The notes below the pieces were generated by a model. It was not told where the DNA came from, ran no database searches, and was given only the letters and a program-made list of their open reading frames with translations. From contig JADFRO010000001.1 of NCBI GenBank assembly GCA_022561255.1, positions 1 through 30,533 of the forward strand: a stretch of DNA of 30,533 bases, written 5' to 3'. The position numbers and the translations under genes are program-made. The DNA is from Planctomycetota bacterium. GTDB taxonomy: Bacteria; Planctomycetota; Phycisphaerae; UBA1845. Of the stretch, positions 3,645-30,533 are shown piece after piece; positions within the stretch are counted from its first letter, which is position 1, and each line of letters starts with the position of its first letter.

Positions 3645-5474
3645 TCAGCGGTTGGATTTGTTGGCGACGGTTGCGATGAGATTTTCGAGTTGTTGAGCGA
3701 GCCGGTTCGCCGGATCGGTCACGTCGCTACCCGGCTCATCCATTGCGCCCGCTGCGGACTGCTTATCCGATCCGGACTGCATGCGATCGGTCCGGCGCAC
3801 CATCTTGCGCAGGTCGGTCAGACTCGCGCGCGTGTTCGAGATGATTTGCTGCAGGGGTTCGCGACGGCGCGACCCGTTGTGTGCTGGCTTGGGCGAGGGC
3901 GTCGCGGTCGTTACAGGGACGGAGGCCTCTTTGACCAGGGTGGCCGGCATTCCCGCGAGCATTTGCGCCTGCGTCAGGCGGTTTAGACCCTGCGACAGTG
4001 CGTCTTGAACCTTACGTGAGCGATCGGTCAGAGCGCTGAGCTGGTCGTGAATTTCACGGGCGCAGCGTTGATCGCGCCGCCCGTCGCGAGAGGCTTTTTG
4101 AACACGATCGAGCAGCTCGATCAGTTCCGTAGCGACGGTCTTCACGGATCCCGACAGCTGGCGAAGTCGAACTTCGCGTTCCGCGAGATCCTTCGTTGCG
4201 GTCTCCACGCGGCCCAGTGTCGATTCGGCGTGCTGGACCGCGACGTGCAACCCGGACTTTGTGGTGCCGGCGCTGACCGACTCTTGCGAGTCCTTGCGAA
4301 GCTTGGCCTCAATCGCTTCGATTCGCCTGCTCGTGTCTGCAAGCTGCGAGCGATATGCGCCGGAGGGTTTGCCGTCGCCGAACGCCTCATTCCGCAGCTG
4401 CGCCGATCGTCGAAGAGCTGCGGCTGAGCCCGATCGCCGCATGGGTCGCCCCGCACTCCCCAGCGCGCCGCGCGTTGCGGGCACAAGCGGACGGGGCAGG
4501 GGCTGTGCGACGGGATAGTACCCGACGGCATAAGGGTTGGCCGGATAAGGGGGCGGTGGAGCTGGGGGGTAGGGTAGGGCGGCGCCCGCGAAACCCTGCT
4601 GCCCTGCTGCTTGTTGGGCCGGCCACACCGCTGAGTGAGGTGCCACACTCCCTTCGGAAATTTCTCCGGTGGACATCATCTGCGTAACGACCGACTCGAC
4701 GAGGCTTACATCGATCTCACGTTGATCGCATGAATAAGCGCTGAGCATAGCGTTGTCGCAGATCGTATTGATCAGGCGCGGCAGTCCGCGCGAGACTTCG
4801 TAGACCTTATCTATCGCGGACGCTCCGAACAAATCGACTCCCTTAGCACCAGCCACCGAAAGCCTGTAGCGGATGTATCCTTCCGTCGATTTTCGATCCA
4901 ATGCCGTCAGGTGGAAGGTGCGGAAGATCCGCTGTTTGAGCTGCCGCAGCTCCGGGGACTGGAACAGTCGCTGCAATTCCGGCTGACCGACGATCGCGAT
5001 TTGCAGGAGCTTGGCGTCGTCGGCTTCGAGGTTTCCGATCATGCGCAACTGCTCGAACGCGGCGATCGGAAGATTCTGCGCTTCGTCGAGCACGAGAACC
5101 ACCGGTATGTTCTGCGCGAACTTCGCCAATAGGAAATCGTGCAGCAGTCGCATCAGTTGGGTGTGGGTCATGCCCGATTCGACGGGTAGCTCGAACTCGG
5201 CACACAACGACTCCATCAGGTCGGCTGCACTGTGGAGCGAATGGTTGATGTTCGCAAATGCGATGTTGGTCTCGAAGCTGCGGAGCATCATCCGCGATAT
5301 AAGCGTTTTCCCGGCACCGACCTCGCCGGTCAGCAAGACAAAACCCTTCCGCTGCTGTACGGCGTAGACGAGTGAGGCGAGCGCCTCCTCATGGTCCGGT
5401 GTCGAATAGAAAAATCGCGGATCGGGTGTGTTGTTGAACGGCAACTCACGGAGTCCGAAGAAATCGGCATACAT
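3645..5474 (-). CDS. ExeA/GspA-like AAA ATPase with a long Pro-rich and coiled-coil C-terminal extension
   Basis: MYADFFGLRELPFNNTPDPRFFY start, Walker A GEVGAGKT, Walker B LVLDEAQNL, IVGQPEL, GLPRLINTICDNAML. This pattern is typical of ExeA-type and PEP-CTERM-locus ATPases. Confidence 0.88.
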   Translation of the reverse strand: MYADFFGLRELPFNNTPDPRFFYSTPDHEEALASLVYAVQQRKGFVLLTGEVGAGKTLISRMMLRSFETNIAFANINHSLHSAADLMESLCAEFELPVESGMTHTQLMRLLHDFLLAKFAQNIPVVLVLDEAQNLPIAAFEQLRMIGNLEADDAKLLQIAIVGQPELQRLFQSPELRQLKQRIFRTFHLTALDRKSTEGYIRYRLSVAGAKGVDLFGASAIDKVYEVSRGLPRLINTICDNAMLSAYSCDQREIDVSLVESVVTQMMSTGEISEGSVAPHSAVWPAQQAAGQQGFAGAALPYPPAPPPPYPANPYAVGYYPVAQPLPRPLVPATRGALGSAGRPMRRSGSAAALRRSAQLRNEAFGDGKPSGAYRSQLADTSRRIEAIEAKLRKDSQESVSAGTTKSGLHVAVQHAESTLGRVETATKDLAEREVRLRQLSGSVKTVATELIELLDRVQKASRDGRRDQRCAREIHDQLSALTDRSRKVQDALSQGLNRLTQAQMLAGMPATLVKEASVPVTTATPSPKPAHNGSRRREPLQQIISNTRASLTDLRKMVRRTDRMQSGSDKQSAAGAMDEPGSDVTDPANRLAQQLENLIATVANKSNR

Positions 5475-5757
5475 ACGGATACGCTCCGAACGGTCCGCGC
5501 AGGGCTGCCAACGCTAGGCGCAGGGTCGCTCGGGTGAAATATCGGTCTCGGGTGCCCCCGCCTTGAGACGCCCTGCTGATCTTCCCCTATCGTGAGCGCG
5601 CTCTTGGATTGGTTATCGGAGCTAGTAAGTCGCCGCCTCACATCGTCGCTCACGTCCGCGAAATGCCGTGTTTGTGGTTCAGGGACTCCCCCTGGCACCC
5701 GATAAACCGCCCATGAGAGCCGACACGCCGCACGTACGCGAGGTGTGCGGACGATCC

Positions 5758-6588
5758 ATGCCCGGCCGAGGTCCAAGCCGTCCGGTGCGATGGAGCCGTT
5801 CTATACCTGCGCGATGCACGCTTCACCCGGCCACGCTTGCCGTAACGCTTGCGTTAATGGGGATCGGGTGCGCCCCGAAGCGATCGGACATCCTCCACTT
5901 CCTGCGCGAGCACGAGCACGAGGTATCCGCCATCGAGTACCGGGTCGGAATTCCGGACGGAATCACCATTACCGCACCGCGGATCATGGAGATCGACGGC
6001 GAGGAGCAGCGGATTCGACCCGACGGGAAGATCAACCTCCGCTTGATCGGCGACGTCAAGGTCGTCGGGATGACGGCCAAGGAGATCGCCGCCAAACTCG
6101 AAGTGCTGGCAAGCCGGTACTACGTCGATCCCAAGGTGGGCGTGCGCGTCACCGGCTATCTGAGTAAAAAGTACTACCTCTACGGCGAGGGTATAAGCGT
6201 CGGACCCAGACCTTACACGGGCCGCGATACGTTGCTCGATGCAGTGATCCGCGCGGGCCCCGATTTTCGTTCCTGGACCAGCAGAGTCCGCGTCATTCGT
6301 CCGGCGCACGACGACATCCCGGTGCGCACCATTACCGTTAATGTCGACGCGATGATTAAGACGGGCGATTGGAGTAAGAACATTCTTCTTGAGCCCAACG
6401 ACATTGTTTATATTCCACCGACTCCGGGCGCATGGATCGGACAGCGCATGCGTGAAATTCTGTTGCCCATCGTTCCCGTGGCGCAGGCGTATACGCTACC
6501 GGCGCAGCTAGCGCGGCTCGGTGACGTGTACGACGACGATGCTAACAGCAGCGGCTTCATCGGCGCTGGCTTCTACGGCGGGTACTAG
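5758..6588 (+). CDS. Polysaccharide export lipoprotein (Wza/Poly_export + SLBB-like)
   Basis: Lipobox-like LMGIGC; EYRVGIPDGITI, IRPDGKINLRLIGDVKVVGMT, DPKVGVRV, LLEPNDIVYIP. Start chosen at ATG 5758 (the ORF track opens at 5668); start uncertain. Confidence 0.87.
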   Translation: MPGRGPSRPVRWSRSIPARCTLHPATLAVTLALMGIGCAPKRSDILHFLREHEHEVSAIEYRVGIPDGITITAPRIMEIDGEEQRIRPDGKINLRLIGDVKVVGMTAKEIAAKLEVLASRYYVDPKVGVRVTGYLSKKYYLYGEGISVGPRPYTGRDTLLDAVIRAGPDFRSWTSRVRVIRPAHDDIPVRTITVNVDAMIKTGDWSKNILLEPNDIVYIPPTPGAWIGQRMREILLPIVPVAQAYTLPAQLARLGDVYDDDANSSGFIGAGFYGGY

Positions 6589-6644
6589 GGGATCGCGGCA
6601 CTTGGCAGCCGCCTCGGCAACTTCTGCCGGGGGGACGGGACGAT

Positions 6645-7562
6645 ATGGGTAGGATCGCAGAAGCACTCAAGCGGGCGGAACAGGAGCGGCGCCGTGCCCT
6701 CGAAATGGGCGGGCAGACCGCACTTCTCGATGCACCGTCGGCGCGCGCGGTGACGCCGGTGGTTGTTCCGACGCGTGGTGACGGCCCGGTTGACCCGGGC
6801 GAAGAAGCCGTGAAGCTGACTGAGGGACTGTCGGAGTCGCTCGTTCCGTTTCACGAGCGGTCGTCGCTGGTGACGGAGCAGTACCGATCGTTGCGAACAC
6901 GCCTGCTGAGCAGCAACCCAAACTATGAGCACCGCATCATCGCGATTACCAGCGCTGTGCCCAAGGAGGGTAAAAGTGTAACGACGCTGAACCTGGGTTG
7001 CATTCTCGCGGAGATTCGCCATTTGAAAGTGCTCGTCGTTGACGGCGATTTCCGTCGAAGCTCGCTCGCGCAGATGCTCAATCAGCCGAGTGGACCCGGT
7101 TTGGCTGAGGTGCTGGACGGAAGCGCGACCTATGACGAAGTGATTCGATCGACACCGATTCCCAACCTAAGCTTTATGCCCGCCGGCAGTACGAACAATC
7201 GGTCCGCGGCCGAACTCCTGACCGCCGCGTCTGCCTCGTCCACCTTCCGTCGCATGCAAAACGAGTTTCACTACACAATCGTCGATACGCCGCCCGCCAC
7301 AACGGTTACGGACGTCGGGATCATTGGACAGATGTGCACCGGCGTTGTGGTCATCGTTCGACTTCACCGGACTCACGAGGCCGCTGCAAAACGCGCGGTG
7401 CGTCTGCTTCAGGTCAACAATATTCCGATCGTCGGTTGTCTGCTGGTCGGCCGTGACTCCCCCTTGGGCGGATACTACGGCTACGGCTACGGCTACCGAT
7501 ACAACTACTACCGTTATTTTAACTACTACACACACAAGGACGGTGAGGCCGACAAGACGTGA
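6645..7562 (+). CDS. CpsD/CapB-family bacterial tyrosine (BY) kinase, stand-alone cytoplasmic type
   Basis: EQYRSLRTRL, Walker A SAVPKEGKS, Walker A' VDGDFR, Walker B IVDTPP, C-terminal Tyr cluster YYGYGYGYRYNYYRYFNYY. No transmembrane segment visible. Confidence 0.92.
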   Translation: MGRIAEALKRAEQERRRALEMGGQTALLDAPSARAVTPVVVPTRGDGPVDPGEEAVKLTEGLSESLVPFHERSSLVTEQYRSLRTRLLSSNPNYEHRIIAITSAVPKEGKSVTTLNLGCILAEIRHLKVLVVDGDFRRSSLAQMLNQPSGPGLAEVLDGSATYDEVIRSTPIPNLSFMPAGSTNNRSAAELLTAASASSTFRRMQNEFHYTIVDTPPATTVTDVGIIGQMCTGVVVIVRLHRTHEAAAKRAVRLLQVNNIPIVGCLLVGRDSPLGGYYGYGYGYRYNYYRYFNYYTHKDGEADKT

Positions 7563-7649
7563 TTCTTAGGTGGATCACGAAACGGCGCACGGCCGTTGCG
7601 AACGGTGCGTGCGTGGCCATGTGGACCTGAGCAAGCATGAGCGCTATCC

Positions 7650-8891
7650 GTGATTGAGGGCCGATTGATTGTCTGTGTCGCGAGCAGTTGGGACTACGAT
7701 CCCACGAGCAAGCACCAGATCATGCGGATCCTCTCCGAGCGTAACGACGTTGTGTGGGTCAACTACCACGGTTCGCGTCGACCGGACATCACCCGGGCAG
7801 ATCTTCGATCGGCGTGGTCTGCCGTTCGACGAATCTCCAAAGGCGTACGTCGCGTCACGTCGTCCATGATTCAAGTAACCCCCCTCGTGATTCCCGGCGC
7901 GGCGCGCCCGTTGATGCAGAAGCTTCATCGGCGGATGCTGGTCGCACAGATTCGGCGTGCGATTCGCTCGATCGATCCGGATCGCAAAAAACCGTTGCAA
8001 GTGTGGTCGTTTGCGCCGGACGTTCCCTACCTTCAAGGAGCGTTCAACGAAGAGTGCTTCATTTACTACTGCGTCGACGACTACACGCAGTTCGAGGGAT
8101 TCGACGCCGAGCGGATTCGGTCGGCCGAAAACGAAACCATCGAGCGGGCGGACGTCGTTGTGACGACGTCGGATCAACTCCTCGCAACACGCAGCGTGAG
8201 GCGACCGGACACCGTTCTGGTTCGCCACGGTGTCGATTTCGACCACTTCGCCCGGGCGTGGCGGCAGACCCTGGATCTACCCACGGACATCGCCGAGATT
8301 CCTCGACCCATCTTCGGCTATTTCGGTTTGATTCACCATTGGGTCGATCAGGACTTGCTCTCCAAGGTCGCACGGGCGAGGCCTTACTATTCTTTCGTGA
8401 TCATCGGTGATTGTCAGGTGGATGTGTCCACCCTGCGTCGAATCCCCAATGTCATGCTTCTCGGGCGACGTGATTACGAACATCTTCCCGCGTACTGCGC
8501 GGCCTTCGACGCCGGTCTACTGCTTTTCAACCGAACGGAGATGACGAAAAGCGTCAACCCCATCAAGATGTATGAATATCTCGCCGCCGGTCTGCCGGTG
8601 ATCTCCACATCGATCCCAGAGGCGCTGCGCTACCTGGGTCCGATCCGCTTCGCCGATACGCCGGACGAGTTCGCCTGCGCTTGCGACGACGTCCTGGCGG
8701 ATTTCTCCGATCGGCGGCGCGAGACGATCAGCCGGACGGTTCAGAGCGAAACCTGGCGATCGCGCGTCGACGCGTTGTCGGAAATCGTGATGGGCCACGT
8801 GAACGGATCGCCGCGCACGCTGCCGCGGACCGGTGTAGAAAGATCCTCTTCCACCGGTCCCATCGCACTACCCGCAACCGCGATCGGATAG
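7650..8891 (+). CDS. GT-B fold glycosyltransferase (GT4-like)
   Basis: YYCVDDY, LVRHGVDFDHF, PIFGYFG, NPIKMYEYLAAGLPVIST; located within the Wza/kinase cluster. Confidence 0.87.
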   Translation: MIEGRLIVCVASSWDYDPTSKHQIMRILSERNDVVWVNYHGSRRPDITRADLRSAWSAVRRISKGVRRVTSSMIQVTPLVIPGAARPLMQKLHRRMLVAQIRRAIRSIDPDRKKPLQVWSFAPDVPYLQGAFNEECFIYYCVDDYTQFEGFDAERIRSAENETIERADVVVTTSDQLLATRSVRRPDTVLVRHGVDFDHFARAWRQTLDLPTDIAEIPRPIFGYFGLIHHWVDQDLLSKVARARPYYSFVIIGDCQVDVSTLRRIPNVMLLGRRDYEHLPAYCAAFDAGLLLFNRTEMTKSVNPIKMYEYLAAGLPVISTSIPEALRYLGPIRFADTPDEFACACDDVLADFSDRRRETISRTVQSETWRSRVDALSEIVMGHVNGSPRTLPRTGVERSSSTGPIALPATAIG

Positions 8892-18454: not shown

Positions 18455-19861
18455 CTACTTTCCGATGCAGAAGTTTGCAAACACATGGCTCAGAAGGTCT
18501 TCGGTGGAGACGTCGCCGGTTACGCTTGCGAGTTCGTCGAGAGCCTCGCGAAGCTCGAACGCTACGAGATCGGCGCAGTCGATCATCTCGGTGGCGTTCT
18601 CGCTGAGCTTTCCAGCTCGCTGAAGCGCTACGCACGCAGCGTCGATCGCCCGCCGTTGTCGGTCGCTGAGCAGGACGACGTCCTGCGATGTCGTGCGCTC
18701 GATCCGTCCCAGTGCGTCAGCGATGGCGTCTCGCAGGTTTTCGATACCCGTACCCTCGGTCGCGCTGGTCGTGTGGACGGGGCCGAGTCGAAGGGCTTCG
18801 AGACGCTCCACGTTCCTCGCGGCATCCGTGGCCCCGAGCAGGTCGCACTTGTTTGCGACCACAAGGGTCGTTGGCACATCGAGGGAGCGCACGGTCGCGG
18901 CGAGGGCGTCGAGCTTGCGGTCCGTCAGGTCGATAACGACGCAAACCAAATCCACCCGCTCTGCCGCTGACAGCGTCAACGCTCTCGCCTGAGCGATGAT
19001 GTCGTCGGGTGATTGATCCACGCCGGCGGAGTCCATCAGAAGTGCCTCGCCTCGGCCGATGCGGATGCTGGCGGTCAGTATGTCACGCGTTGTGCCCGCC
19101 GCAGCCTCACAGATCGCGCGGCGCGTCTCGCTCAATCGATTCATCAATGAACTCTTGCCGGCGTTGGGACGTCCGAGAAGCAGTACGTGCGGAAGCTGCT
19201 CGAAGCGTTCCACCGATTGCGAAGTGCGAAGTGACTCCTTTAGCTTGTTCGTGACGGACCCAATGCGGTCGCGCAGCGCCCGTGGTGTGATGAACTCAAT
19301 CGGTTCTTCCGAGAAATCGATGTCGGCCTCGACAAGAGCAAGACACTCCGCGAGTTCGTCCCGCAAGTCCACCGTTTGTCTTGCGAGCCGTCCGTCCATC
19401 AAACGGCGGGCGGCGCGCAGCTGTGTATCGGACTGTGCACGGATCAACCCCGCCACCGCCTCCGCTTTGGTGAGGTCCATCGCTCCGTTGAAAAACGCTC
19501 GGGCAGTGAACTCGCCCGCCTCGGCGAGGACCGCTCCGGCGGCTTGTGCGCGTCCCAGAAGCATTTCGAGTGCGGGTGGCGAACCGATCGTCTGTATTTC
19601 CACAATGTCCTCGCGCGTGTAGCTATGCGGCGCACGGAACAAGTAGATCGAGGCAGGTAGTCGCAGGTCGTCATCGATGACCACATCGCCCGATAACCGC
19701 GTCGCTCCGGGCACGGCTGAAATGGGAGTGGCGGTGCACGTCCGGACGATCTTCCGGGCAATGGAGAGGGCACAGGGGCCGCTAAGGCGAACGATGCCTA
19801 CGGCCCCGCGGCCTGGGGCGGAAGAAACCGCCACGATGGTTTCGTTTGTGCGCTCGAGCAT
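18455..19861 (-). CDS. mnmE: tRNA modification GTPase MnmE (TrmE)
   Basis: TIVAVSSAPGRGAVGIVRLSG, FRAPHSYTREDIVE, AGEFTARAFFNG.MDLTKAEAV, G1 GRPNAGKSS, G2 GTTRD, G3 DSAG, G4 NKCD, C-terminal FANFCIGK. Confidence 0.96.
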   Translation of the reverse strand: MLERTNETIVAVSSAPGRGAVGIVRLSGPCALSIARKIVRTCTATPISAVPGATRLSGDVVIDDDLRLPASIYLFRAPHSYTREDIVEIQTIGSPPALEMLLGRAQAAGAVLAEAGEFTARAFFNGAMDLTKAEAVAGLIRAQSDTQLRAARRLMDGRLARQTVDLRDELAECLALVEADIDFSEEPIEFITPRALRDRIGSVTNKLKESLRTSQSVERFEQLPHVLLLGRPNAGKSSLMNRLSETRRAICEAAAGTTRDILTASIRIGRGEALLMDSAGVDQSPDDIIAQARALTLSAAERVDLVCVVIDLTDRKLDALAATVRSLDVPTTLVVANKCDLLGATDAARNVERLEALRLGPVHTTSATEGTGIENLRDAIADALGRIERTTSQDVVLLSDRQRRAIDAACVALQRAGKLSENATEMIDCADLVAFELREALDELASVTGDVSTEDLLSHVFANFCIGK

Positions 19862-20195
19862 GGCGCCGTCCGGTAACCGAGTTCCCCGCCTGACGTTGTT
19901 GCATCGTCACATCTGTTGGCACTTTGGTCAAAGGCGTCCGGTTGTCCGGGCGCGCGAGCAGTGGTGAACGCTGCGCGCGTTCCAGACGGGCGAATAAGAC
20001 GGAAACGCCAAAAAGCGGACCAACCGCTGCAAGAAAAAACTTGACTTTTATCCGTGTTGTGAAGCCGCCAATGATGATTTCACCCAAAAGCGGCTCAGAA
20101 GTTTGCGGCTGTTTTTTTTATATTCTACCGTTCGGGCGAGTACCAGAACCTGTTTTCCAGTACCCAAAAGAAGGTGCGAACTAAGGGCTTCAATT

Positions 20196-21662
20196 ATGGC
20201 ACTGACCATCACGAACACGAACACGATTATGCTGCTGAACATTCTGAACCGCCACACCGCAGCCCAGGCGAACACGATCCGCCAGCTCTCCACGGGTAAA
20301 CGGATCAACAGCGGAAAGGATGATCCAGCCGGTCTCATCGCCCTGCAAAACCTAAACGCCGAGCTGACGGCGGTGAACGCTTCGCTGATCAACAACCAGC
20401 GGACGGACTCGATGTTGACCGTGGCGGACGCCGCGATCGGCGAGTTGAGCAAACTGCTCAACGAGATTGAGACGCTCGTGGTCAGCTCGACCAGCAGCGC
20501 CAATCTCACCAATTCGGAGATTGCCGCCAACCAGGCGCAGATTGACGACGCATTGACGGCGATCGACCGTATCGTGAACACCACGAACTTCAACGGCAAG
20601 AGGCTTCTGGACGGTAGCTTCTCGATTCAGACCGTCGGTGTCAGCACTCAATTCATCGACAGCCTGCGGGTCTTTTCGCGGAGTCAGGTGACCACCGATA
20701 CGGCGCTCACCGTGACGCGAGTCGCTTCCGCGCAGCTCGCGTCAGCGACCTTCGCATTTGCGGGCGGTACGGCCAGAACGTCCGGCACGACCCAAATCGC
20801 CATCACCGGAACGCTGGGTACGGCGACGGTGACGCTGACCAGTGGATTGACCCAGGCGCAGATCGTTTCGACGATCAACGCGGCCAAGAGCCAAACAGGC
20901 GTTTCGGCGATCCAGAACAGCACCAACATAAAACTCAACTCGACAACCTACGGCACAGATGCGTTCACAAGCGTGCAGGTGCTTTCCGGAGGGACGATCA
21001 ACGCGACCTACGGCACATCGACCGGTGATGGCAACACGGCAAACGATATGTCGAACGTGTCCAAGCAGGCGGGCATCGACGCCAACATGACCATCAACGG
21101 ACAGGCGACCGGTGCGGACGGGTTGGACATCACGTATAGTGCAAACGGACTGAGCCTGGAGTTTACCCTCGACAGCGATTTTGGCAGCGGAAACTCCGGC
21201 GCGACGACCACCACCGTCTTTACCGTCAGGGCGGCGGGTGGCGCGACATTCCAGCTCGGCACGACCACCAGAACGCGGGCAACAATCGGTCTCGACTCGC
21301 TGGCGTCCTACAACCTCGGTGGTGGTAACGGCACGGCGAAGCTCAGCGAGCTCAAGGCCGGCGGCGCTGTGGATCTCAAGACGGACGCGGGTGGTGCGCT
21401 AAGCGCCGTTCGTGAGGCGATTGCCGAGGTGGCCAGCACCCGAGGCCGAATCGGTGGATTCCAGAGGTTCCAGGTTGGAAGTGCGATTTCCTCGCTTCAG
21501 TCGGCGCAGAAAGGTCTGACCGAAGCAACCAGTTTGATCGGCGACACGGACTTCGCAATCGCAACCGCCAGACTCAACCAGGAGACCGTGCTCATCCAGG
21601 CGGCGATACAGCTACTCGGCGTCGCCAACCAGACGGGTTTACAGATCCTGTCACTGCTCTAA
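20196..21662 (+). CDS. fliC: Flagellin (divergent, 488 aa)
   Basis: LSTGKRINSGKDDPAGL, IDRIVNTTNFNGKRLLDG, C-terminal RGRIGGFQ...DTDFA...ILSLL, with a Thr/Gly/Ser-rich variable middle. Start set at ATG 20196. Confidence 0.9.
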   Translation: MALTITNTNTIMLLNILNRHTAAQANTIRQLSTGKRINSGKDDPAGLIALQNLNAELTAVNASLINNQRTDSMLTVADAAIGELSKLLNEIETLVVSSTSSANLTNSEIAANQAQIDDALTAIDRIVNTTNFNGKRLLDGSFSIQTVGVSTQFIDSLRVFSRSQVTTDTALTVTRVASAQLASATFAFAGGTARTSGTTQIAITGTLGTATVTLTSGLTQAQIVSTINAAKSQTGVSAIQNSTNIKLNSTTYGTDAFTSVQVLSGGTINATYGTSTGDGNTANDMSNVSKQAGIDANMTINGQATGADGLDITYSANGLSLEFTLDSDFGSGNSGATTTTVFTVRAAGGATFQLGTTTRTRATIGLDSLASYNLGGGNGTAKLSELKAGGAVDLKTDAGGALSAVREAIAEVASTRGRIGGFQRFQVGSAISSLQSAQKGLTEATSLIGDTDFAIATARLNQETVLIQAAIQLLGVANQTGLQILSLL

Positions 21663-21862
21663 CGGCCGTCAAATCGGTTCAGATCAAAAAGGAGCCGAGC
21701 GCGCTTGGGGGAGCCGCTCGTCGACGGGGTACCGCGACGGGTCGAGGGGAAAGCCTTCGGCCCGTTGTGCGTTACCAGTAGCGTCTGGGGGGTATCTCCA
21801 CCGTTCGCCATTTCGCGTTTGTTCTTGAGTCGGCTCGCTCAACGTCCGATCACTCAATATGT

Positions 21863-22627
21863 ATGTGCGCGTGCGAACCAATCCGTGGCTACGACTCCGA
21901 GGTCCGACACTTCGACGAGCTTGTTGTACAGACCGGCGAGAGCTGGTGGGGCCACCGCACGCCGGCCGGCATCCGCCGCCTCGCTCGAAGAGCACGCTTG
22001 CTGACCGATGGGATTCAACTCTCTTCAAGCGATCGGGTTCTGGAGATTGCGGCCGGTGCGGGAGCATTTACGGAGACTGTGTTGCGCCGCGTACCGCAAG
22101 CTCACATCGTCGCGACAGATATCTCCGGCGCATCGATAGATTACCTAGCCTCGCGCTTGCGTGAGTATCCGAATCTCGAACCCCGCCTCGCTGACATCAC
22201 ACGCTTGGAGTTCGAGGATGAAGTCTTCGACGCGGCGATCGGCAACTCAGCTCTTCATCACGTTGATACGCAACTCTGTCTGAAAGAGCTGTTCCGTGTG
22301 CTTCGACCCGGCGGACGTCTACTGATCTTTGAGCCCAATCTGCTCAACCCGGAAGTGCTATTGGAATCAACTGTAGCGCGCCGCCTTGCCGTTCGGTCGC
22401 TCGAATACTCGGTCGAGGAGCAAACGCACACACGCTGGCGTTACCGCTCGATGTTGCGGCGCGCCGGATTCGTGCAAGTGTCCGTACGTCCTTTTGACTT
22501 TCTGCATCCCAAGACACCGCGATTTCTTCTCGGCACGGTTGTGAACGTAGGACGCGTTCTCGAATGTTTTCCAATACTCCGCGAGATATCGGGTTCACTG
22601 CTTCTGGCGGCGCGCCGTCCCGCCTGA
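21863..22627 (+). CDS. Class I SAM-dependent methyltransferase
   Basis: Motif I-like VLEIAAGAG, ATDIS, ADITRLEFEDEVFDAAIG, LHHV, LFRVLRPGGRLLIFEPN. Confidence 0.85.
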   Translation: MCACEPIRGYDSEVRHFDELVVQTGESWWGHRTPAGIRRLARRARLLTDGIQLSSSDRVLEIAAGAGAFTETVLRRVPQAHIVATDISGASIDYLASRLREYPNLEPRLADITRLEFEDEVFDAAIGNSALHHVDTQLCLKELFRVLRPGGRLLIFEPNLLNPEVLLESTVARRLAVRSLEYSVEEQTHTRWRYRSMLRRAGFVQVSVRPFDFLHPKTPRFLLGTVVNVGRVLECFPILREISGSLLLAARRPA

Positions 22628-22647
22628 ACCGCTCTTGCAGCATCCTG

Positions 22648-25437
22648 CTAGGGCGCCGAATCACGGCGGCGGCGGTTTTCTCTTAGCAACTGATCAAACT
22701 CCTCAGCGAAGCGCCGTCCCCCCATTTCAGGGTGCAAGAACTTCTGCTGTTCGATCACTTTAATGATTCCGTCCGGTGGATGCTGCAACTGGGTTCGGCA
22801 GCGCAGGTCGAGAAGCAGTGCTTGCCAACGTACTTCCAGCTCGGTGGACAGAGTCGTGGCGAGTCGATTGAAGGTCGGAAGCGCCTCTTGAAGTTTTCCC
22901 TGTTTCATCTTGGCGTCTGCGAGGCCAAAAACCGCTCGCAGTTCGAGTAAACTGGGCGGCGGAGCGTCCAACCCGTCAGCGTCGACGAGCGGTGCGAACA
23001 TCGCTTCCGCAACATCGAATCGTCCGACCAGAAGGTTCGCCTCCGCCAATTGGATGGCCAACCCGCGTGTATGTTCGATGGACAGGGAATGTGGATACTG
23101 ACGTGACCAACGCTCAAGTTGCTCAGCGAGAACCAATGCGGTTTTCGCCTTGCGAGCGGCGGCGCCCGTATCGCCGGCGGAGAGGAGCCTTTCCCACTCA
23201 CTGAGGGTCGCGTCGTATAGTGATTGAAGTGTTTGACCGGCACCTTCGGGATCCGCTGTGACGTAGGCCGAGATCGCATCTGTGGCTTCGTCTAGTTGTC
23301 CCATCGCTTCATGCGCAAGGAGCCTGATCCGCCAGAGCTTACCCTGTAGATCCGGCGTATCGGGGTAACGGGTCTCAAAGTTCGTGAGTCGCCGCAAGGC
23401 GATAGCCGGCCGATTGATAAGAGGAAGGATGTCGACGTCGGCAACGGCGAGCAGGCCGTCCGCGAGAAGTCGTTGTACGGCTTGCTTTTGTATGCCGTCA
23501 ACCTCGCGAGCCCTCTCGGCGATTCGCATCAAATCGCGGTAGGCAGAGAGTACGGCGTCCACATTTTCCGTGAAGCCTGCGTCGCGGGTTCGTGCAGGCG
23601 CTTGCTCCTTGACCACACGCACGAGCGAGAGCAGCCGGAGGTGCGCACCGCTCAGATAGTGCTCGTGGCCGGGGTCGACCTGGGCGTATTCGGCGGCGGC
23701 TTGTGCGTATTCCCCCCGGTGGCTGAGTAGTTGAGCGTAATAGAACCGCCAGTACGTAGCCTCCTCCGAGTTCGGGTGGTGGTGAAGCAGCGTTCGCAAC
23801 GCGTCCGCGTAGAATTCGCCGACGTCACCAGCCGGATCACCCACATCTTGGGGGTTATCCTCAGAAGTATACGCCGTTGCGGCGAGTTGAACGGCGAGCG
23901 TGGCTGCTTCCAGAGCATCGGGCGATTCGCCGTGGGCGCGGGCAATTTCGAGGAAACACTTCGCAGCACGCACGACTTCGCCCCGGCGATAGTGGGTCAC
24001 TCCGAGTTGTCGAAGAATCTCCGGTGCGAAGGCTCGCGTCGTGTCGTCGAGTCCGGCGAGGAATTTTTCACCGGTTGCGACGGCGCGATCGAGAAGGCTG
24101 GCCGTTTCGGTATCGTCGACCGACTCCTGGGAGAGCAGAGAGGCCAGTCGTGCCGCCAAGTCGACGGGGTCAAGCTGCTCGATGGGCGTATCCCGCGGTA
24201 TCGTTCGATTGAGCGCCGCGTAGAGTTCGTCGCGGCGGCCGGCGTACTCGACGATAAGTTGAGCAAGCGCCTGCCAGGCGTCGCTGCGATAGGTAGCGGC
24301 ATCGACGGACAGTCCGGCCTTCTCCGCGGCGTCGGCGTGTGCGCGGTTCAGCGACCGTTCGAGTATAGCCGCCACCATCGCAACGCCGAACGCATCGACC
24401 TGATCCTGTTCCGCAACGCCGCTGAGTTTTCGCAATCGCTCTATACCTGCGGCTGCAGCCTTCCACCGTCGAGCGTCCCGGTCGTTTCGAATTCCTTCGA
24501 TCTCCGCCAGGGTGACCGCCCACGCCACGCCGCGACGTTCGGTCGGATCGGTCAATCGACTGGCGAGTATGCGCGTATGGTCGAGAAATTCCCTTGCTTT
24601 GTGGTGGTCGTTGAGGCGCCGGAAGCTCATGCCCGCCAGTAGCGTGGCGGGAATCTGCACGCGGCTTTGCTCGTGCGGTGTCTTGAGGATCGTAGGTTTG
24701 TCGGTGAACGTTGTGAGGATTTCGTTAAGCTGTCGGGCGAGCGCCGGATCGTCGGGCTCGCGATGGAGGCAGTCATAGAAAAGCGTCCAGAGCAGGAGGT
24801 AATCGGCGTTGGGCGCAATCTCATCGAGCTGATCGAGGTAGCCCGTTCCCTCGATCCGTCCGAACTGAGATGTGGACAGTTGATCGATACGCACGTACTC
24901 GTCTGCGATGCGCTGGATCAAGGATCGAACCACATCGATCGCCTGCGCGGAGATGGGGGCGAGGCGCTGACGGTCATCGTCGTTTCCGCCGCTGTAGAGA
25001 ATGTTCGTAGCATACGTCTCCGCCTGCTTATAGAGGATCGAGTGGCCGAGCGTGAACAGCCAGTCGAAACGGCGCACGTCGTCCGGGTTCTGCTCGACGA
25101 GTTGCACTAAGATTTCGTTGGCCTGGACGATCGCGCGCCGTCGCTCCTCGACGGGCTTGGTGCCGTCGTCGAACGTCGCGAGTTTCACTTCGCGCGTCAT
25201 GAGCATTACGTCGATCGGGCTCTCGGGAGGGAATTCCTTCAGATGTAGTTCGAGTAGCTCATGGAGTCCGCGCTTTTTCAGACCTTCGCGAAACAGTGCG
25301 GTGCTCAGGCGGGTCTCTTCCGCGGGTCTACCGGGCGTGACTTCGGAGTTCGCGCGCACCGAATCCTGGGCACGCGCGGCGCCCGCGAAGATCAGAGGGA
25401 GGAGCATCAGCGTGACGTTAAGGTTCAGCGAAGGCAA
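22648..25437 (-). CDS. Large exported TPR/alpha-solenoid protein (~920-930 aa)
   Basis: Signal-peptide-like LMLLPLIFAGAARA|QD, then a helical Ala/Leu-rich body with TPR-like units (LGVTHYRRGEVVRAAKCF, YAQLLSHRGEYAQAAAEY, LADAKMKQGKLQEALPTF). Start is TTG 25437 or ATG 25407; the ORF-track start at 25656 lies well inside the exbD gene. Confidence 0.8.
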   Translation of the reverse strand: MPSLNLNVTLMLLPLIFAGAARAQDSVRANSEVTPGRPAEETRLSTALFREGLKKRGLHELLELHLKEFPPESPIDVMLMTREVKLATFDDGTKPVEERRRAIVQANEILVQLVEQNPDDVRRFDWLFTLGHSILYKQAETYATNILYSGGNDDDRQRLAPISAQAIDVVRSLIQRIADEYVRIDQLSTSQFGRIEGTGYLDQLDEIAPNADYLLLWTLFYDCLHREPDDPALARQLNEILTTFTDKPTILKTPHEQSRVQIPATLLAGMSFRRLNDHHKAREFLDHTRILASRLTDPTERRGVAWAVTLAEIEGIRNDRDARRWKAAAAGIERLRKLSGVAEQDQVDAFGVAMVAAILERSLNRAHADAAEKAGLSVDAATYRSDAWQALAQLIVEYAGRRDELYAALNRTIPRDTPIEQLDPVDLAARLASLLSQESVDDTETASLLDRAVATGEKFLAGLDDTTRAFAPEILRQLGVTHYRRGEVVRAAKCFLEIARAHGESPDALEAATLAVQLAATAYTSEDNPQDVGDPAGDVGEFYADALRTLLHHHPNSEEATYWRFYYAQLLSHRGEYAQAAAEYAQVDPGHEHYLSGAHLRLLSLVRVVKEQAPARTRDAGFTENVDAVLSAYRDLMRIAERAREVDGIQKQAVQRLLADGLLAVADVDILPLINRPAIALRRLTNFETRYPDTPDLQGKLWRIRLLAHEAMGQLDEATDAISAYVTADPEGAGQTLQSLYDATLSEWERLLSAGDTGAAARKAKTALVLAEQLERWSRQYPHSLSIEHTRGLAIQLAEANLLVGRFDVAEAMFAPLVDADGLDAPPPSLLELRAVFGLADAKMKQGKLQEALPTFNRLATTLSTELEVRWQALLLDLRCRTQLQHPPDGIIKVIEQQKFLHPEMGGRRFAEEFDQLLRENRRRRDSAP

Positions 25438-25918
25438 TGTTCTTGCACCCGGCGCGTAGCGCAGCGTTCCAGCAGCCCACGACGTGATCCCATCGAACCT
25501 CGGCCTCCGACACGATGACCACCGGCGTTTCGACGTCGAAGCCCGGCTGTTGCTGAATCCGTCGGAGGAAATCGGGCAACTCGGCGATGGTGCGCGGGGC
25601 GGGCTGAAACCGGTCGACCTGAATCGCGAAATCGTCGAATGACGGTCCTGTCCCAACCAGACGAATCACGATCGGGCTGAACGGTAACGCGACCGCGCTT
25701 CCCGTCTGCGGCATTTCGGCGGCGAGAATTCCCTCCGGTCGCTCGAATGTACTGGTGACAATAACGAAGCTGAACAACAGGAACGTCATGTCGATCATCG
25801 GAGCCATGTTCAAGACGATCGCACGTCTGCCCGACCTGGTTCGGCGTTTGGTCCGGCGCGACCTCGCCCGGTCGGACCTGTCACGTTTTCCGGCGCCGTT
25901 TCCGCTGGGTTCAACCAT
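25418..25918 (-). CDS. exbD: ExbD/TolR-family protein (paralog 2)
   Basis: Basic N-terminus, TM with the conserved Asp LNMAPMIDMTFLLFSFVIV, and a C-terminal periplasmic domain ending AGCKNIAF. Confidence 0.87.
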   Translation of the reverse strand: MVEPSGNGAGKRDRSDRARSRRTKRRTRSGRRAIVLNMAPMIDMTFLLFSFVIVTSTFERPEGILAAEMPQTGSAVALPFSPIVIRLVGTGPSFDDFAIQVDRFQPAPRTIAELPDFLRRIQQQPGFDVETPVVIVSEAEVRWDHVVGCWNAALRAGCKNIAFAEP

Positions 25919-25919
25919 G

Positions 25920-26378
25920 CTACGGTGTCTCCCCGACGTGAGCGACGATGTTTAACATCTTGATGTCATTGTCCGCCACAACTCGCATGGCAGCCCGAAC
26001 GTCGGCGTAGGGCAGCCGCCGGTCCGCTCGTACGACCGCCTCGAGGTTGACCGATTCTCTTTTCATCGCCGCGAGACGCTCTGCGATCACGTGCAACGGT
26101 TCCGGCGCGTTGGGGCCCAGGCTGTAGAGCGCGCCGGCGGTCGAAGATGCACCCGAGCCGGGTATTCGGCAATTGATGACGACACGTTCCGGCATCCTCG
26201 CGAGCTGAGCCTTGCTTTCGTCCGGCTTGGGTAATTCCATACGCACCTGCTCCGCCGAGGACAAGTGACACACCAACATGAAGAAGATCGTTAGAATAAA
26301 CATCATGTCGAACATGGGCGTGGCGTTAAAGGCCATGACTTTCGCTGGCAATCGGCGATGGTGGCGTGTGTGTCGCAT
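25920..26378 (-). CDS. exbD: ExbD/TolR-family protein (paralog 1)
   Basis: FNATPMFDMMFILTIFFML TM with the conserved Asp; ELPKP; VVRADRRLPYADV C-terminal motif. Confidence 0.9.
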   Translation of the reverse strand: MRHTRHHRRLPAKVMAFNATPMFDMMFILTIFFMLVCHLSSAEQVRMELPKPDESKAQLARMPERVVINCRIPGSGASSTAGALYSLGPNAPEPLHVIAERLAAMKRESVNLEAVVRADRRLPYADVRAAMRVVADNDIKMLNIVAHVGETP

Positions 26379-26398
26379 CTTAGTTCACGTCTCGCCGT

Positions 26399-27178
26399 TC
26401 AAACGGATGCTTGCGGTGTCGTCTCGGCGGACCCCTGCCCCGGCTCTTCCCCGCTGCCCGGTGCGAACACCGACAACATTCGGTCAGCCGTCAGGGCGCA
26501 CTCGGCTGTCAACACGTCGATTCGGTTTCTAAACAGGGCATAGATGCTCAGCGACGGAATCGCGACGGCGAGCCCCCAGAACGTTGTGATCAGCGCCACG
26601 GCCATCCGATCGGCAACGATGCGCGCACCGGGAAGTCCGTCGGCGGCGTGAATCTCCGCGAACAACAGGATCATGCCATAAACCGTGCCGAACAGCCCGA
26701 TCATCGGTGAAACGTTCCCGATGACGTTGAGGTATTCGATCTTGCGAAAGAACCCGGCGGATCGTTCGTCGAGTGCATCCTCAACCGCACGCTCCATCGC
26801 GTCGTATCCGTTGGACGCTTCGAGAAGACCTGTGTTGAGGATGTACCCCATCATGCTGGGGTCGTCCGCGGTGAACTGGATGGCTTCGAGGTATTTCTTG
26901 CCGTGAATCAACTCGCGCGTGTGTTCAATCGCCTCCGCCGGCACGATCGTCGCACGGCGAATCGAAAGGCCATGCTCGATCGTCAGCGCCAACATTACGA
27001 CCGACAAAACGATCAACAGGTACGCGATCCAGCCGCCCTTAACCACGAAAAAGTCGAAGTACTTCAGCCCTTCGACGGTCCCGCCGTCCGCATCGCTTTG
27101 CGACCACACCTGGGATGTGGACAGAAACAACACCACCAGAACCATCACGGCGATCATACCGACGAGTCGTGTACGCAC
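26399..27178 (-). CDS. exbB: MotA/TolQ/ExbB proton-channel protein
   Basis: GGWIAYLLIVLSVV, YLNVIGNVSPMIGLFGTVYGMI, ALITTFWGLAVAIP..Y..F. GTG start with AGGAGAAGG upstream. N-terminal signal-peptide-like segment. Confidence 0.93.
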   Translation of the reverse strand: MRTRLVGMIAVMVLVVLFLSTSQVWSQSDADGGTVEGLKYFDFFVVKGGWIAYLLIVLSVVMLALTIEHGLSIRRATIVPAEAIEHTRELIHGKKYLEAIQFTADDPSMMGYILNTGLLEASNGYDAMERAVEDALDERSAGFFRKIEYLNVIGNVSPMIGLFGTVYGMILLFAEIHAADGLPGARIVADRMAVALITTFWGLAVAIPSLSIYALFRNRIDVLTAECALTADRMLSVFAPGSGEEPGQGSAETTPQASV

Positions 27179-27231
27179 GGCCTTCTCCTATTTGACGTCG
27201 TGTCCTGGCGTCCGATCCGGGGCGGTGCCTC

Positions 27232-28320
27232 TCACCGCGACGTACCTGTACGCAGGCGTGCGAGCATCGCCTGCGCCTGACTCTTGACTTTTTCGCTCGC
27301 CCCAACGTGTGCGAGGCATTCCGAAAGCATGACCCTCGCTCGATCCCTATTGCCCAATTGTTCGAGCGCTGTGGCTGCGCCGAATAATGCGTCGGCGGCG
27401 CGGGTATCGTCGCCCATATGGATCACCACACGCATAAAGGGCCATGCGGCGCGAATCACCTCTTCACGTGTCTTCGCCGACCGAAGAAGACTCTCGCCCT
27501 TGATGAGCAGAAAATCCGCCAGCACCGACTCCGGGCAGTCGCGGATGGCGCGGTCCAAGGCGGCGCGCACGGTCGCTGTCGTGGCCCCGCCGAGCACTTC
27601 TCGAAACGCGGACGTCAGAATCGTGTAAACCTGCTCCGATCGAATCGACGCTGCGATCGGAAGCGCGATCGCACGCATCGCCGCTGAGGTCGCCCGTCGA
27701 TCGCCGTTGGCCTTTAATATCTTGAAGCGTACCAGCGCAAAGAGCAGGTGTTGCAATGGTTCGGGCGCAGCCGCCAGGGCCAAATCCAACTCTCGAATCG
27801 CACGACCGAACTTGGCAGTACGACGTTGAGGAATTCGTTGTGGAATCAACCGGGCGGCCGCCCGCGCACCGGACCGCTTCCCACGAGCGAGACGAACGAA
27901 GTAGCCCGTTGCTTTGTCGATCTGGTCCGCTCGATCGTACGCAATGATCAACCGCGCGGCGATCAACTCACTCCAGAAATCGGTACTGAGTTTCAGCGCG
28001 CGCTCGTATCGCGCTGCCGCCTTTTGCGGTTCACCCGAAGCGAGGAAGCGCTCGGCTTCATTGAAGTCGTCGAAAACGCCTGTACGGTCGACGATGATCA
28101 AATCAATATCGCCGATATGAACCGCTACGCTCATGCCTTCGGCCGATCGAAACCGAAGTTGTCCGTCCTCGAGCGTGCGAATCCGTGCGCCTCGATAGTT
28201 TTGTTTGCCCACAACGATCTGATCGGCGCGCGTGGGGAGTACCCATAGCAGCGCAACGCAGGCCGCTGCCACTCGGCAAAGTGTAGCGCCGCCTAGGATT
28301 GTTGATCTAGGGTAGGTCAT
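27232..28320 (-). CDS. Exported TPR protein (362 aa) with a small N-terminal beta-rich domain
   Basis: Signal-like AAACVALLWVLPTRA|DQI; TPR-like AERFLASGEPQKAAARYERAL and ADALFGAATALEQLGNRDRARVML. ATG 28320 overlaps the vWA gene stop (14-nt overlap). Confidence 0.78.
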   Translation of the reverse strand: MTYPRSTILGGATLCRVAAACVALLWVLPTRADQIVVGKQNYRGARIRTLEDGQLRFRSAEGMSVAVHIGDIDLIIVDRTGVFDDFNEAERFLASGEPQKAAARYERALKLSTDFWSELIAARLIIAYDRADQIDKATGYFVRLARGKRSGARAAARLIPQRIPQRRTAKFGRAIRELDLALAAAPEPLQHLLFALVRFKILKANGDRRATSAAMRAIALPIAASIRSEQVYTILTSAFREVLGGATTATVRAALDRAIRDCPESVLADFLLIKGESLLRSAKTREEVIRAAWPFMRVVIHMGDDTRAADALFGAATALEQLGNRDRARVMLSECLAHVGASEKVKSQAQAMLARLRTGTSR

Positions 28321-29275
28321 ACTCGGAAACGAACTTGAACTCTCCGCCGTGCTCCCTCGCAATCCCTTCCAGGATTTCGCGCCCGCCCTGGTCGAGGTAA
28401 GCGATCGTGTAGATCCTCGTGTGCCGTCCTCGGTTCCACGCATCAAGCTTGGCGGGCAGGTCTGGATCGAAGCTGATGCCGTCGCTGAGAAGGTAGATGA
28501 GATCGGGCTCCATCGCGAGCGCTCGGCGCAAGGCCAACTCCGGTCGGGTGCCCCCACCGGCGGCGACGTTATCAAGAAACTTAAAGAAGTCCCTCCGATG
28601 GGCGTCGATCGCATTCACCAGTCGCCGGGGCGGGTTCTCCAGAGGCGCCCCCGAATTAAAGAAGATGACGTGAAACTTCTGACTACGCCGAAGTGCGGAT
28701 ATCGATCGTTTGAGCTCGGCCCGCACGTGAAGGAACGTATCGACCATCGAGCCGCTTCGGTCCACCACGTACACGATCGACCGTACGCCCGGCGCTGATC
28801 CGCCGACGCCGAAAAACTCCGGTCCCGCTCCGCCACCCGCCGACAGGCCGTACTTGCTAAGATCCAAAGCGCCCACCGAGCCCGCTCGGATTCCGAGGAT
28901 CGAAAACTCCGGAGCCTTCAGCGATCGCGGCTGAACAAGTTTCGCAAGCGCCACCGCGTCGCGATTCGGTGTGAAGCGCTTAGCCAGCGGGTCGGGCGTG
29001 TCTCGCTGGCGCTTCTTATCCGGGACGTTTGCAGCAGCCGTTGGAACGGCGTCGATCTCGCCGATGACCTGAGCGTGCGCTACGGGAAGCCTCGGCTCCT
29101 CGTTGGGCGAAAAGGGAAACACCAGGAGAAACATACTCGCGAACGCTACGGTGTGTACCAGGACGGACAGCACCCAAGCCCCGGCGACGCCTCGCCCGGT
29201 CAGACTCATCGCGGCGGAGCCTTCGTGCCCCGATCGATGCGGATCGATGATCTCGACGGCGTCCACGTGGGTCAT
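28307..29275 (-). CDS. Membrane-anchored von Willebrand factor A (vWA) domain protein
   Basis: ATG 29275 preceded by GAGGA; single TM AWVLSVLVHTVAFASMFLLVF; Pro/Gly-rich linker; MIDAS YVVDRSGSM, Thr in GGTRP, Asp in YLLSDG. Confidence 0.88.
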   Translation of the reverse strand: MTHVDAVEIIDPHRSGHEGSAAMSLTGRGVAGAWVLSVLVHTVAFASMFLLVFPFSPNEEPRLPVAHAQVIGEIDAVPTAAANVPDKKRQRDTPDPLAKRFTPNRDAVALAKLVQPRSLKAPEFSILGIRAGSVGALDLSKYGLSAGGGAGPEFFGVGGSAPGVRSIVYVVDRSGSMVDTFLHVRAELKRSISALRRSQKFHVIFFNSGAPLENPPRRLVNAIDAHRRDFFKFLDNVAAGGGTRPELALRRALAMEPDLIYLLSDGISFDPDLPAKLDAWNRGRHTRIYTIAYLDQGGREILEGIAREHGGEFKFVSEYDLP

Positions 29276-29532
29276 GGGGAATTCCTCGGGCCTGCCGCTA
29301 CGGTGCCACGCGCGAAAGCCGTTGTGGTGGGTGCGGCGGGCATCGGCGGCGCTTCGCCGGGCCGGGCACGCCAACACCGAGAAAAGTGTAGTTCGACGGA
29401 CCTCACCGGTCAACGTAAAACGCAAACGCCACCGATGCATAACGATGCGCCGGTAGGGCACGACGGAGCGGCTGGCGATCATCCCCCCACACTCTGCTTT
29501 CCGGGCACGCGAGCATGGGGTACACTCCCGAC

Positions 29533-30533
29533 ATGCACCGACGCGATATGGCTGTAAGTGGGCTGACGCGGAGCATGCGGCGCGTACTCATCGCGTGCTT
29601 CGCGTTGGCCGTCTTACCGTCCTCCTCCGTCGCCGACGAGTCCGGTGCCAAGGGCCGCACCGACCAGAACCCCAGCGACATCGCGGCGTCGCCGGTTCAC
29701 GTCTCCCTTCCGGAAGGCTTCGACGACGAAGCTTCCTTCGCTCGATCCGTTCAAGACGACGTGAAGCGACTCATCCAGCGGGCGGAGCAAGCTCAAAGCC
29801 GCGCGCTCCAGGCGGAGCTTTTCCTGGCTGCGGCGAATCGGCTTCTCGCCTCCGGAATGGAGCTAGCTTGCACGAGTCGATTGATGCGGCTCAAGATCGC
29901 CGACGAGGCTCCGACCGACTCGTCGCTGGGAGCGCTCCTGGATCGTGTCGACGTGCTGCTTGGTAATTGCGAGACCGCATCAGGCGATCTCGAACGGGGG
30001 ACCACTGATGCGCCCGACGGAGCGGAGGCTACCGAAAGCGCAGACAGGTCTCGCCGTGAAACGATCACCCACCGTCTCGCCGCGCTGCGCGCGTTCGCCC
30101 AAGCGGTTCGAGCCTACGCCCTTCCCGGGGGCGGTTCACGCTCGGCGCGATCAGCCGCCTCGGGTTTGTCGTTCCTTCGTGAAGATCACGATCCCCAAAC
30201 CGCTGCCGCCGCTTCGTTGTGGCAGGCTGCGCTTCGAAGTGAGGAGGCTGAGGGAACCCGTGCTCTTTCGATTCTGGACGAAGCTACCGCGGATCTGCCG
30301 GCTGGTTCGTTGCCCTATTCCTTCTTCTCGCGACTCTTGCGATGCCGCCTGCTGGCTGAGCGGGGTTCATGGGCCGCGTCGCTTGCCATGGTCATGCAGG
30401 TCGAGGAGCGGTGTAACGACTGGTTCACCGACGACGACCGACGCGAGCTCGCCCTGCATAGCTGCGCCGCGCTTCAGATCGACATTCTTAGGCAGTGGCA
30501 CGACGGAATCGCGACACCGGCGGGCGATGAGCA
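29533..30533 (+). CDS. Exported alpha-helical hypothetical protein, truncated by the right edge
   Basis: Not in the ORF track. My translation from ATG 29533 (or 29548/29575) is open to the edge: ..MRRVLIACFALAVLPSSSVA|DESG...; signal-peptide-like N-terminus and an Ala/Leu-rich helical body. Confidence 0.7.
   Translation, partial: MHRRDMAVSGLTRSMRRVLIACFALAVLPSSSVADESGAKGRTDQNPSDIAASPVHVSLPEGFDDEASFARSVQDDVKRLIQRAEQAQSRALQAELFLAAANRLLASGMELACTSRLMRLKIADEAPTDSSLGALLDRVDVLLGNCETASGDLERGTTDAPDGAEATESADRSRRETITHRLAALRAFAQAVRAYALPGGGSRSARSAASGLSFLREDHDPQTAAAASLWQAALRSEEAEGTRALSILDEATADLPAGSLPYSFFSRLLRCRLLAERGSWAASLAMVMQVEERCNDWFTDDDRRELALHSCAALQIDILRQWHDGIATPAGDE

Follow-up and report, generated by a model that had tools for sequence, protein, structure and literature searches.

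A six-gene operon from a Phycisphaerae genome joins an ExbB/ExbD-type motor to a candidate vWA force transducer and two TPR proteins

We describe a six-gene operon in which one ExbB/TolQ-like and two ExbD/TolR-like motor subunits are encoded together with a putative force transducer headed by a vWA (von Willebrand factor A) domain and with two tetratricopeptide-repeat (TPR) proteins, here called TPR1 and TPR2. The operon lies in a 30,533-nucleotide stretch of DNA (hereafter the window; contig JADFRO010000001.1 of GenBank assembly GCA_022561255.1, catalogued by us as contig C83) from a metagenome-assembled genome (MAG) of 2.88 Mb that is 84% complete; the relatives of this genome are MAGs from the Phycisphaerae (Planctomycetota), and near-identical DNA is found chiefly in marine-sediment metagenomes. 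On its sequence features, the locus can be placed in the ‘vWA force transducer’ class, so far a computational class (Williams-Jones et al., Mol Biol Evol 2025;42:msaf138; PMC12204202), as a member from the Phycisphaerae. The data show which domains the proteins contain and how they are arranged, that the catalytic and coupling residues are conserved, that the synteny is kept and that the system is independent of TonB. We consider it likely that the products form a single machine, in which a 5:2 proton motor pulls—through a docked transmembrane (TM) helix and a linker—on a target held by the metal-ion-dependent adhesion site (MIDAS) of the vWA head, with TPR1 and TPR2 as periplasmic scaffolds.

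The operon consists of six co-directional open reading frames (ORFs) on the minus strand, in the order vWA, TPR1, ExbB, ExbD1, ExbD2 and TPR2 (29275 to 22648; Table 1). The vWA and TPR1 ORFs overlap by 14 nucleotides (28307–28320) and the later junctions are gaps of 53 (TPR1–ExbB), 20 (ExbB–ExbD1), 1 (ExbD1–ExbD2) and 10 nucleotides (ExbD2–TPR2, the TPR2 ATG lying at 25407). Genes on the opposite strand flank the operon at both ends: a convergent methyltransferase gene (21863–22627) and a divergent gene that starts at 29515. Scanning for sigma-70 promoters revealed one promoter-like site 5′ of the vWA gene (29413–29385, minus strand), with a site count not above shuffled expectation, while a terminator scan returned nothing terminator-like on the minus strand within the operon. 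A preliminary description of this DNA, made from the sequence alone, had listed six minus-strand genes with these junctions, had judged the motor residues intact and had seen no canonical TonB, TolA, TolB, Pal or TonB-dependent receptor in the window. ORFs and spacing are exactly as it gave them, Pfam confirms each label (VWA, TPR in both TPR proteins, MotA_ExbB, and ExbD twice), none of the window proteins matches any of the five absent components, and the motor residues proved invariant or nearly so, as detailed below.

The integrin-like vWA protein is laid out as a short cytoplasmic N-terminus, a single TM helix, a disordered linker and a C-terminal MIDAS vWA domain. Across 46 aligned homologues, W34, S37 and H41 of the TM helix are invariant (including in Mariniblastus, at 26–27% identity), M48 is nearly invariant, and the five MIDAS residues D172, S174, S176, T243 and D265 are all invariant (alignment A1). 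In an AlphaFold2 (AF2) model, the helix (residues 27–52) has a predicted local distance difference test score (pLDDT) of 96 and the vWA domain (160–322) scores above 94; residues 53–155 between them are disordered, with low pLDDT and almost no secondary structure. Among homologues, this linker measures 103–140 residues (median 106) and contains about 11% proline. The top Foldseek matches of the head are the MIDAS vWA domains of ITIH1, CaV alpha2delta, CLCA1 and CMG2, with E-values down to 1e-11, and the solved structures closest to it are vWA domains that bind ligands through a MIDAS; no match to TonB_C (PF03544) was found in the protein with Pfam. TonB and TolA are coupled to their motors by a Ser-x3-His face on the TM helix. 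The vWA protein shows the three-part TonB/TolA layout, including that Ser-x3-His face, under a different head. Some transducers in other Phycisphaerae families additionally carry an N-terminal cytoplasmic zinc-ribbon (CxxC...CxxC), often as two tandem paralogues accompanied by three ExbD genes (loci L061, L062, L064 and L065, on G002:C82, G068:C10, G009:C1 and G138:C147, respectively).

Scanning with the vWA protein, at one genome per species, yielded 53 loci. In about 36 of these the complete set of six genes is found in unchanged order, at 30–70% identity; most of the others are contigs that end early, and a profile search showed that even the divergent low-GC locus L046 retains all six. Given some 36 independent loci with this synteny, chance adjacency of the six genes was rejected. 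A further six loci, from four other Phycisphaerae families, share the order of one or two vWA genes, TPR1, ExbB, two or three ExbD genes and TPR2, with TPR1 and TPR2 always there. In four genomes the operon is split: vWA and TPR1 remain paired, and a block at another site comprises either ExbB–ExbD1–ExbD2–TPR2 or just the motor. The vWA–TPR1 pair, the motor and TPR2 are modules that can be rearranged yet are co-retained. Both the six-gene order and the association of the vWA and TPR genes with the exbBD set, on which the preliminary description turned, hold up in this sample: the order recurs in the 36 or so Phycisphaerae loci and in the six distant-family loci, and the association is kept in complete loci, with every module still present in the genomes whose operons are split. 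Counted at domain level, and so as an upper bound that may include non-orthologous vWA proteins, a vWA homologue (E ≤ 1e-10) occurs in 140 of the 151 class genomes sampled, and at least 37 class genomes have a TPR1 match directly after the vWA match.

One homologue stands apart from any adjacent motor. In Mariniblastus (Pirellulales; L047, 9884–13742), the vWA gene keeps the W-x2-S-x3-H motif and is preceded by a DUF1559 pseudopilin-like gene and followed by a gene for an 891-residue secreted protein, which was rejected as a TPR2 homologue as it resembles M14 carboxypeptidases. BatA/BatB-type proteins likewise combine a TM anchor with a vWA domain and are found alongside TPR proteins, and a motorless vWA homologue is what might be expected if the operon held a Bat-like (BatA–E, aerotolerance-type) envelope module of vWA and TPR genes, merely neighbouring an ExbBD set that serves another partner. 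However, no MoxR AAA+ ATPase or DUF58 gene is present among the window ORFs, the S-x3-H motor-coupling motif is invariant even in Mariniblastus, neighbouring genes overlap or almost touch, and genomes with a split operon have kept the motor, all of which makes a Bat-like module highly improbable.

Within the motor, D24 of ExbD1 is invariant in 36 sequences, D43 of ExbD2 is also invariant, and the GTVYGM motif and TT198–199 of ExbB are conserved across 36–38 orthologues. For ExbB the best NCBIfam model is TolQ, at 69 bits (cut-off 221), and for ExbD1 it is TolR, at 41 bits (cut-off 127); scores for the ExbB and ExbD equivalogs fall far under their cut-offs. The operon ExbB is 25% identical to the other TolQ-like protein of the same genome. 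Because even the best TolQ and TolR models score far below equivalog cut-offs, the operon motor constitutes a separate subfamily. Operons with two exbD paralogues are known, for example exbD1/exbD2 of Xanthomonas. Here, ExbD1 and ExbD2 share only about 20% identity and the one is always accompanied by the other, which argues for an ExbD1/ExbD2 heterodimer inside the ExbB ring. A flagellar stator role for this motor was rejected: the MotA and MotB of this genome are encoded on contig C361.

The genome, as far as its completeness allows, encodes neither a TonB_C domain nor a TonB-dependent receptor barrel. TonB_C is found in 78 of the 151 class genomes but in 1 of the 20 from the window’s own order, 19 of which carry a vWA homologue; elsewhere in the Phycisphaerae, in other families, the system coexists with TonB_C proteins. 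The two remaining MotA/ExbB-family genes of the genome have partners of their own, namely MotA with MotB (C361) and a TolQ-like protein with TolR-like and PD40 proteins on contig C3. The C3 cluster (L054, 22–10057) encodes an M56 (BlaR1-type) peptidase, a 1097-residue TPR/BamD-like protein, the TolQ-like protein, a single TolR-like protein and a 993-residue PD40 beta-propeller, a Tol-like arrangement in which no TolA or Pal was recognisable. Since the other two motors have their own partners and no TonB_C domain or receptor was found, the simplest reading is that the operon motor serves the vWA protein exclusively. Contig C380 (L056, 2839–8078) also encodes a 320-residue protein with only a C-terminal ExbD-like domain, beside a 1058-residue TPR–secretin fusion.

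A transducer of TonB topology, in a genome where no TonB_C domain or receptor was detected and an order where TonB_C is rare, is also what Ton-like import would predict, with the vWA head engaging a channel or gate of the outer membrane whose gene lies elsewhere, and with the motor driving uptake of large substrates, polysaccharides or proteins for example, in place of TonB and its receptors. Yet in none of the roughly 48 loci inspected is the operon linked to a gene for an outer-membrane barrel or transporter, and near-universal presence suits a housekeeping task better than niche-specific uptake. Moreover, the system does not simply replace TonB, because other Phycisphaerae families have both together. 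We regard import as distinctly unlikely.

Comparison of the N-termini of 42 homologues showed that TPR1 has a Sec signal peptide with a conserved cleavage site (A-x-A/G↓DQ), then a small N-terminal beta region and then TPR repeats. TPR2 starts with a Sec-type signal peptide followed by an all-alpha TPR-like superhelix, modelled by AF2 with a mean pLDDT of 88.8, about 45 helices and 0 strands. Because both carry Sec signal peptides and comparison of their N-termini revealed no conserved lipobox, we read TPR1 and TPR2 as probably soluble periplasmic proteins. Both give weak CpoB/YbgF matches in NCBIfam, and TPR2 is present in every complete locus, those of distant families included. Fold searches with the TPR2 model retrieved only generic long TPR scaffolds, and Atlas feature searches with both proteins only generic TPR scaffolds or hypothetical proteins from bacteria of the Planctomycetes–Verrucomicrobia–Chlamydiae (PVC) group; neither search gave a functional lead. 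In a single test, the predicted complex of TPR1 (residues 30–362) with the periplasmic part of the vWA protein (58–322) reached a median score of 0.08 against a mark of 0.32, a value that counts neither for nor against an interaction.

In the proposed machine, five ExbB/TolQ-like subunits would ring an ExbD1/ExbD2 pair bearing a proton-binding Asp on each chain, giving the presumed 5:2 stoichiometry. The vWA TM helix would dock outside the ring through its Ser-x3-His face, as TonB and TolA do, presumably by way of His41, and the disordered, proline-containing linker of about 106 residues would span the periplasm. The MIDAS head may grip its target through a metal-coordinated acidic residue, so that rotation of the motor would pull on whatever the head holds; TPR1 and TPR2 would act as soluble scaffolds or adaptors of the same machine. 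As to role, our best guess, by analogy with Tol–Pal, is a housekeeping envelope function such as tethering or remodelling of the outer layers rather than nutrient import. We lean this way because the system is near-universal in the class, its motor is more TolQR-like than ExbBD-like, its TPR proteins give weak CpoB-like matches and no linked transporter was found. A bolder version would make the system, in the Phycisphaerales (largely without TonB), the main housekeeping coupler of inner-membrane energy to the outer envelope, acting through a MIDAS-dependent force-bearing bond to a target in the periplasm or outer layers and with TPR1 and TPR2, above all the invariant 900-residue TPR2, as an obligatory scaffold; this we hold to be unlikely. 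If true, such an obligatory periplasmic TPR scaffold would be without a described precedent among Ton/Tol-type motors.

Several points weigh against these proposals. The vWA tally is, as noted, an upper bound, and the profile of the faster-evolving TPR1 reaches only 75 of the 151 class genomes. Neither an outer-membrane partner nor a ligand for the vWA head was found, and a genome that is 84% complete does not prove the absence of TonB. The Tol-like cluster on C3, with its PD40 protein, weakens the idea that the operon substitutes for Tol. For the class as a whole, function was stated to be unknown and no deletion phenotype was reported (PMC12204202).

Table 1 Features of the operon and its upstream neighbour (positions are those of the window).
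Feature	Position	Strand	Basis or detail
vWA force-transducer candidate, 322 aa	28307..29275	-	Pfam VWA (PF00092, E 1e-6, above cut-off), AF2 model, Foldseek
TM helix of vWA protein with W34-x2-S37-x3-H41	29120..29197	-	Ser codon 29165-29167, His codon 29153-29155; M48 near-invariant
MIDAS of vWA protein, D172-x-S174-x-S176	28748..28762	-	Other MIDAS residues T243, D265; alignment A1
TPR1, 362 aa	27232..28320	-	Pfam TPR_14/TPR_19; N-termini of 42 homologues
ExbB/TolQ-like motor subunit, 259 aa	26399..27178	-	PF01618 E 3e-26; signal-like N-terminal segment
ExbD1/TolR-like, 152 aa	25920..26378	-	PF02472 E 2e-15; TM Asp24, codon 26307-26309
ExbD2/TolR-like, 166 aa	25418..25918	-	PF02472 E 1e-12; TM Asp43, codon 25790-25792; K/R-rich cytoplasmic extension
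TPR2, 919 aa	22648..25407	-	Pfam TPR matches, AF2 model
‘TPR0’, secreted TPR-like (candidate)	29515..30531, continues beyond window end	+	Possible lineage-specific accessory

The divergent gene upstream of the operon encodes a secreted protein of about 360–400 residues with no Pfam match, which we call TPR0. Of the 53 related loci, 30 have this gene, in each case immediately upstream of the vWA gene and on the other strand, and the Atlas structure of its orthologue from L019 resembles TPR solenoids. A TPR0 hidden Markov model matched in 0 of the six distant-family loci and the gene was seen in the 30 close loci only, so TPR0 was not adopted as a seventh member of the system.

Two marine-sediment RNA-Seq assemblies contain pieces of 180–390 nucleotides from TPR2, ExbD2, ExbD1 and TPR1 at 95–100% identity, a hint that the operon is expressed; DNA carry-over is possible and the contigs are no proof of a single transcript. 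In an RNA-labelled (WGA) library, one contig links position 21782 to 22657 with 53 other letters between them and, because of this junction, a related strain seems to be without the methyltransferase gene between the flagellin region and the TPR2 end. A flagellin gene (20103–21662, plus strand) and MnmE (18455–19861, minus strand) lie just downstream of TPR2, and the same neighbourhood recurs in L008, L011, L034 and L041. As it recurs in a few related loci, this neighbourhood is local synteny rather than a functional link. Elsewhere in the window, a polysaccharide-export-type cluster (3645–8891) comprises an AAA_22 ATPase (minus strand), a Poly_export (Wza-like) protein, a ParA/MinD-type P-loop protein and a group-1 glycosyltransferase, and a UvrA ORF (169–2118, minus strand) covers only the first ABC module and its insertion domains.

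The textbook account of how diderm bacteria get inner-membrane energy to the outer envelope is that of Ton and Tol; a third route, one using a metal-dependent vWA head, would broaden that account. Such a system may explain how the outer layers are serviced in PVC bacteria without TonB, TolA or Pal. As the class has already been proposed computationally, the locus is useful chiefly as a clean minimal exemplar, with a single transducer and strong conservation: within its 84% complete genome, TonB and TonB-dependent receptors were not detected, and the flagellar and Tol-like motors are separate. The defined set of residues—S37 and H41 of the transducer, D24 and D43 of the ExbD proteins and the MIDAS residues—lends itself to mutagenesis in a relative that is in culture, for instance Phycisphaera mikurensis.

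Set beside the Ton system (ExbB–ExbD–TonB), the operon shares a MotA_ExbB and ExbD motor with a TM Asp, and a partner with an N-terminal Ser-x3-His TM helix and a periplasm-spanning linker; it differs in that no TonB_C domain or TonB-dependent receptor was found in the genome and in the low scores of its motor against the ExbB and ExbD equivalogs. With Tol–Pal and CpoB it has in common its best NCBIfam matches (TolQ and TolR), operon TPR proteins with weak CpoB/YbgF matches and a wide distribution in the class. In contrast to Tol–Pal, there is no linked TolB or Pal in the window, there are two TolR paralogues, the head is a vWA domain rather than TolA domain III, and a separate Tol-like cluster is encoded on C3. 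TPR2 also recalls the periplasmic scaffold of the Campylobacter flagellum (PDB 9hmf chain K), a large TPR chain that is likewise periplasmic and belongs to a machine powered by 5:2 motors, but this chain ranked 21 among the TPR2 fold matches with TM-scores of only 0.16–0.18, which denotes generic TPR similarity and is not evidence of homology or a shared role.

The Agl–Glt machinery of Myxococcus, with CglB, offers a further parallel, drawn in the preliminary description: one TolQ-like and two TolR-like genes, with TPR proteins and a vWA protein involved. A surface adhesion or gliding machine of this type, in which such a motor drives a vWA-containing adhesin complex, would match the operon in motor gene count, and gliding has been speculated upon for the class (PMC12204202). 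The analogy is nevertheless weak. CglB is an outer-membrane lipoprotein adhesin, whereas the vWA protein here is a transducer whose TonB-like helix tethers it to the inner membrane; the Glt transducers GltG and GltJ carry a C-terminal TonB_C domain, and a search of the genome for such domains found none; and the organism has genes for a MotAB stator and, beside the operon, for flagellin. A gliding or adhesion machine is thus very unlikely.

The closest known relatives are the vWA proteins that Williams-Jones et al. proposed as motor-driven force transducers, which are tethered to the inner membrane and have a disordered linker and, in the TM helix, an SHLS motif; the family was reported in Proteobacteria, Planctomycetes, Verrucomicrobia, Bacteroidetes and Rhodothermaeota; their AF3 models of a family member put the TM His at the motor edge (PMC12204202). 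In the literature searched, we found no later work that extends the class. As the same gene set in PVC bacteria had already been proposed there, the operon is not undescribed, as it had first been called; the accompanying idea of a self-contained motor–transducer–scaffold system stands in its core, as a system without canonical TonB, on the invariant S-x3-H, the synteny, the co-retention of split modules and the failure to find TonB_C or a receptor in the genome, or TonB_C in 19 of the 20 genomes of the order. The second family in the same paper (vWA trans-pore-helix), with an ExbD-like Asp in the TM helix and no tolR/exbD genes, was excluded, as the TM helix here has S and H without Asp and there are two ExbD genes. 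With the SHLS-type family, exemplified by Tichowtungia aerotolerans, our locus shares the inner-membrane tether, the TonB/TolA-like Ser/His TM helix, a disordered, proline-containing linker of about 100 residues and the C-terminal vWA domain. Of the SHLS motif itself, only S, H and a hydrophobic position (M48) are conserved here, the last Ser not being so. The paper depicts one TPR gene, and its exemplar has two tandem transducers; our operon has a single transducer and two TPR proteins, the small TPR1 and the giant TPR2 (919 residues), the latter constant, and the gene order of our operon—vWA first, then TPR1, motor and TPR2—also differs. To the published class the Phycisphaerae add a unit with two TPR proteins, in which the 900-residue TPR2 is as constant as the motor, in place of one TPR gene; an operon that splits into modules which are always co-retained; and, in 30 close-relative loci, a divergent third secreted TPR-like gene that was not found in the distant families.

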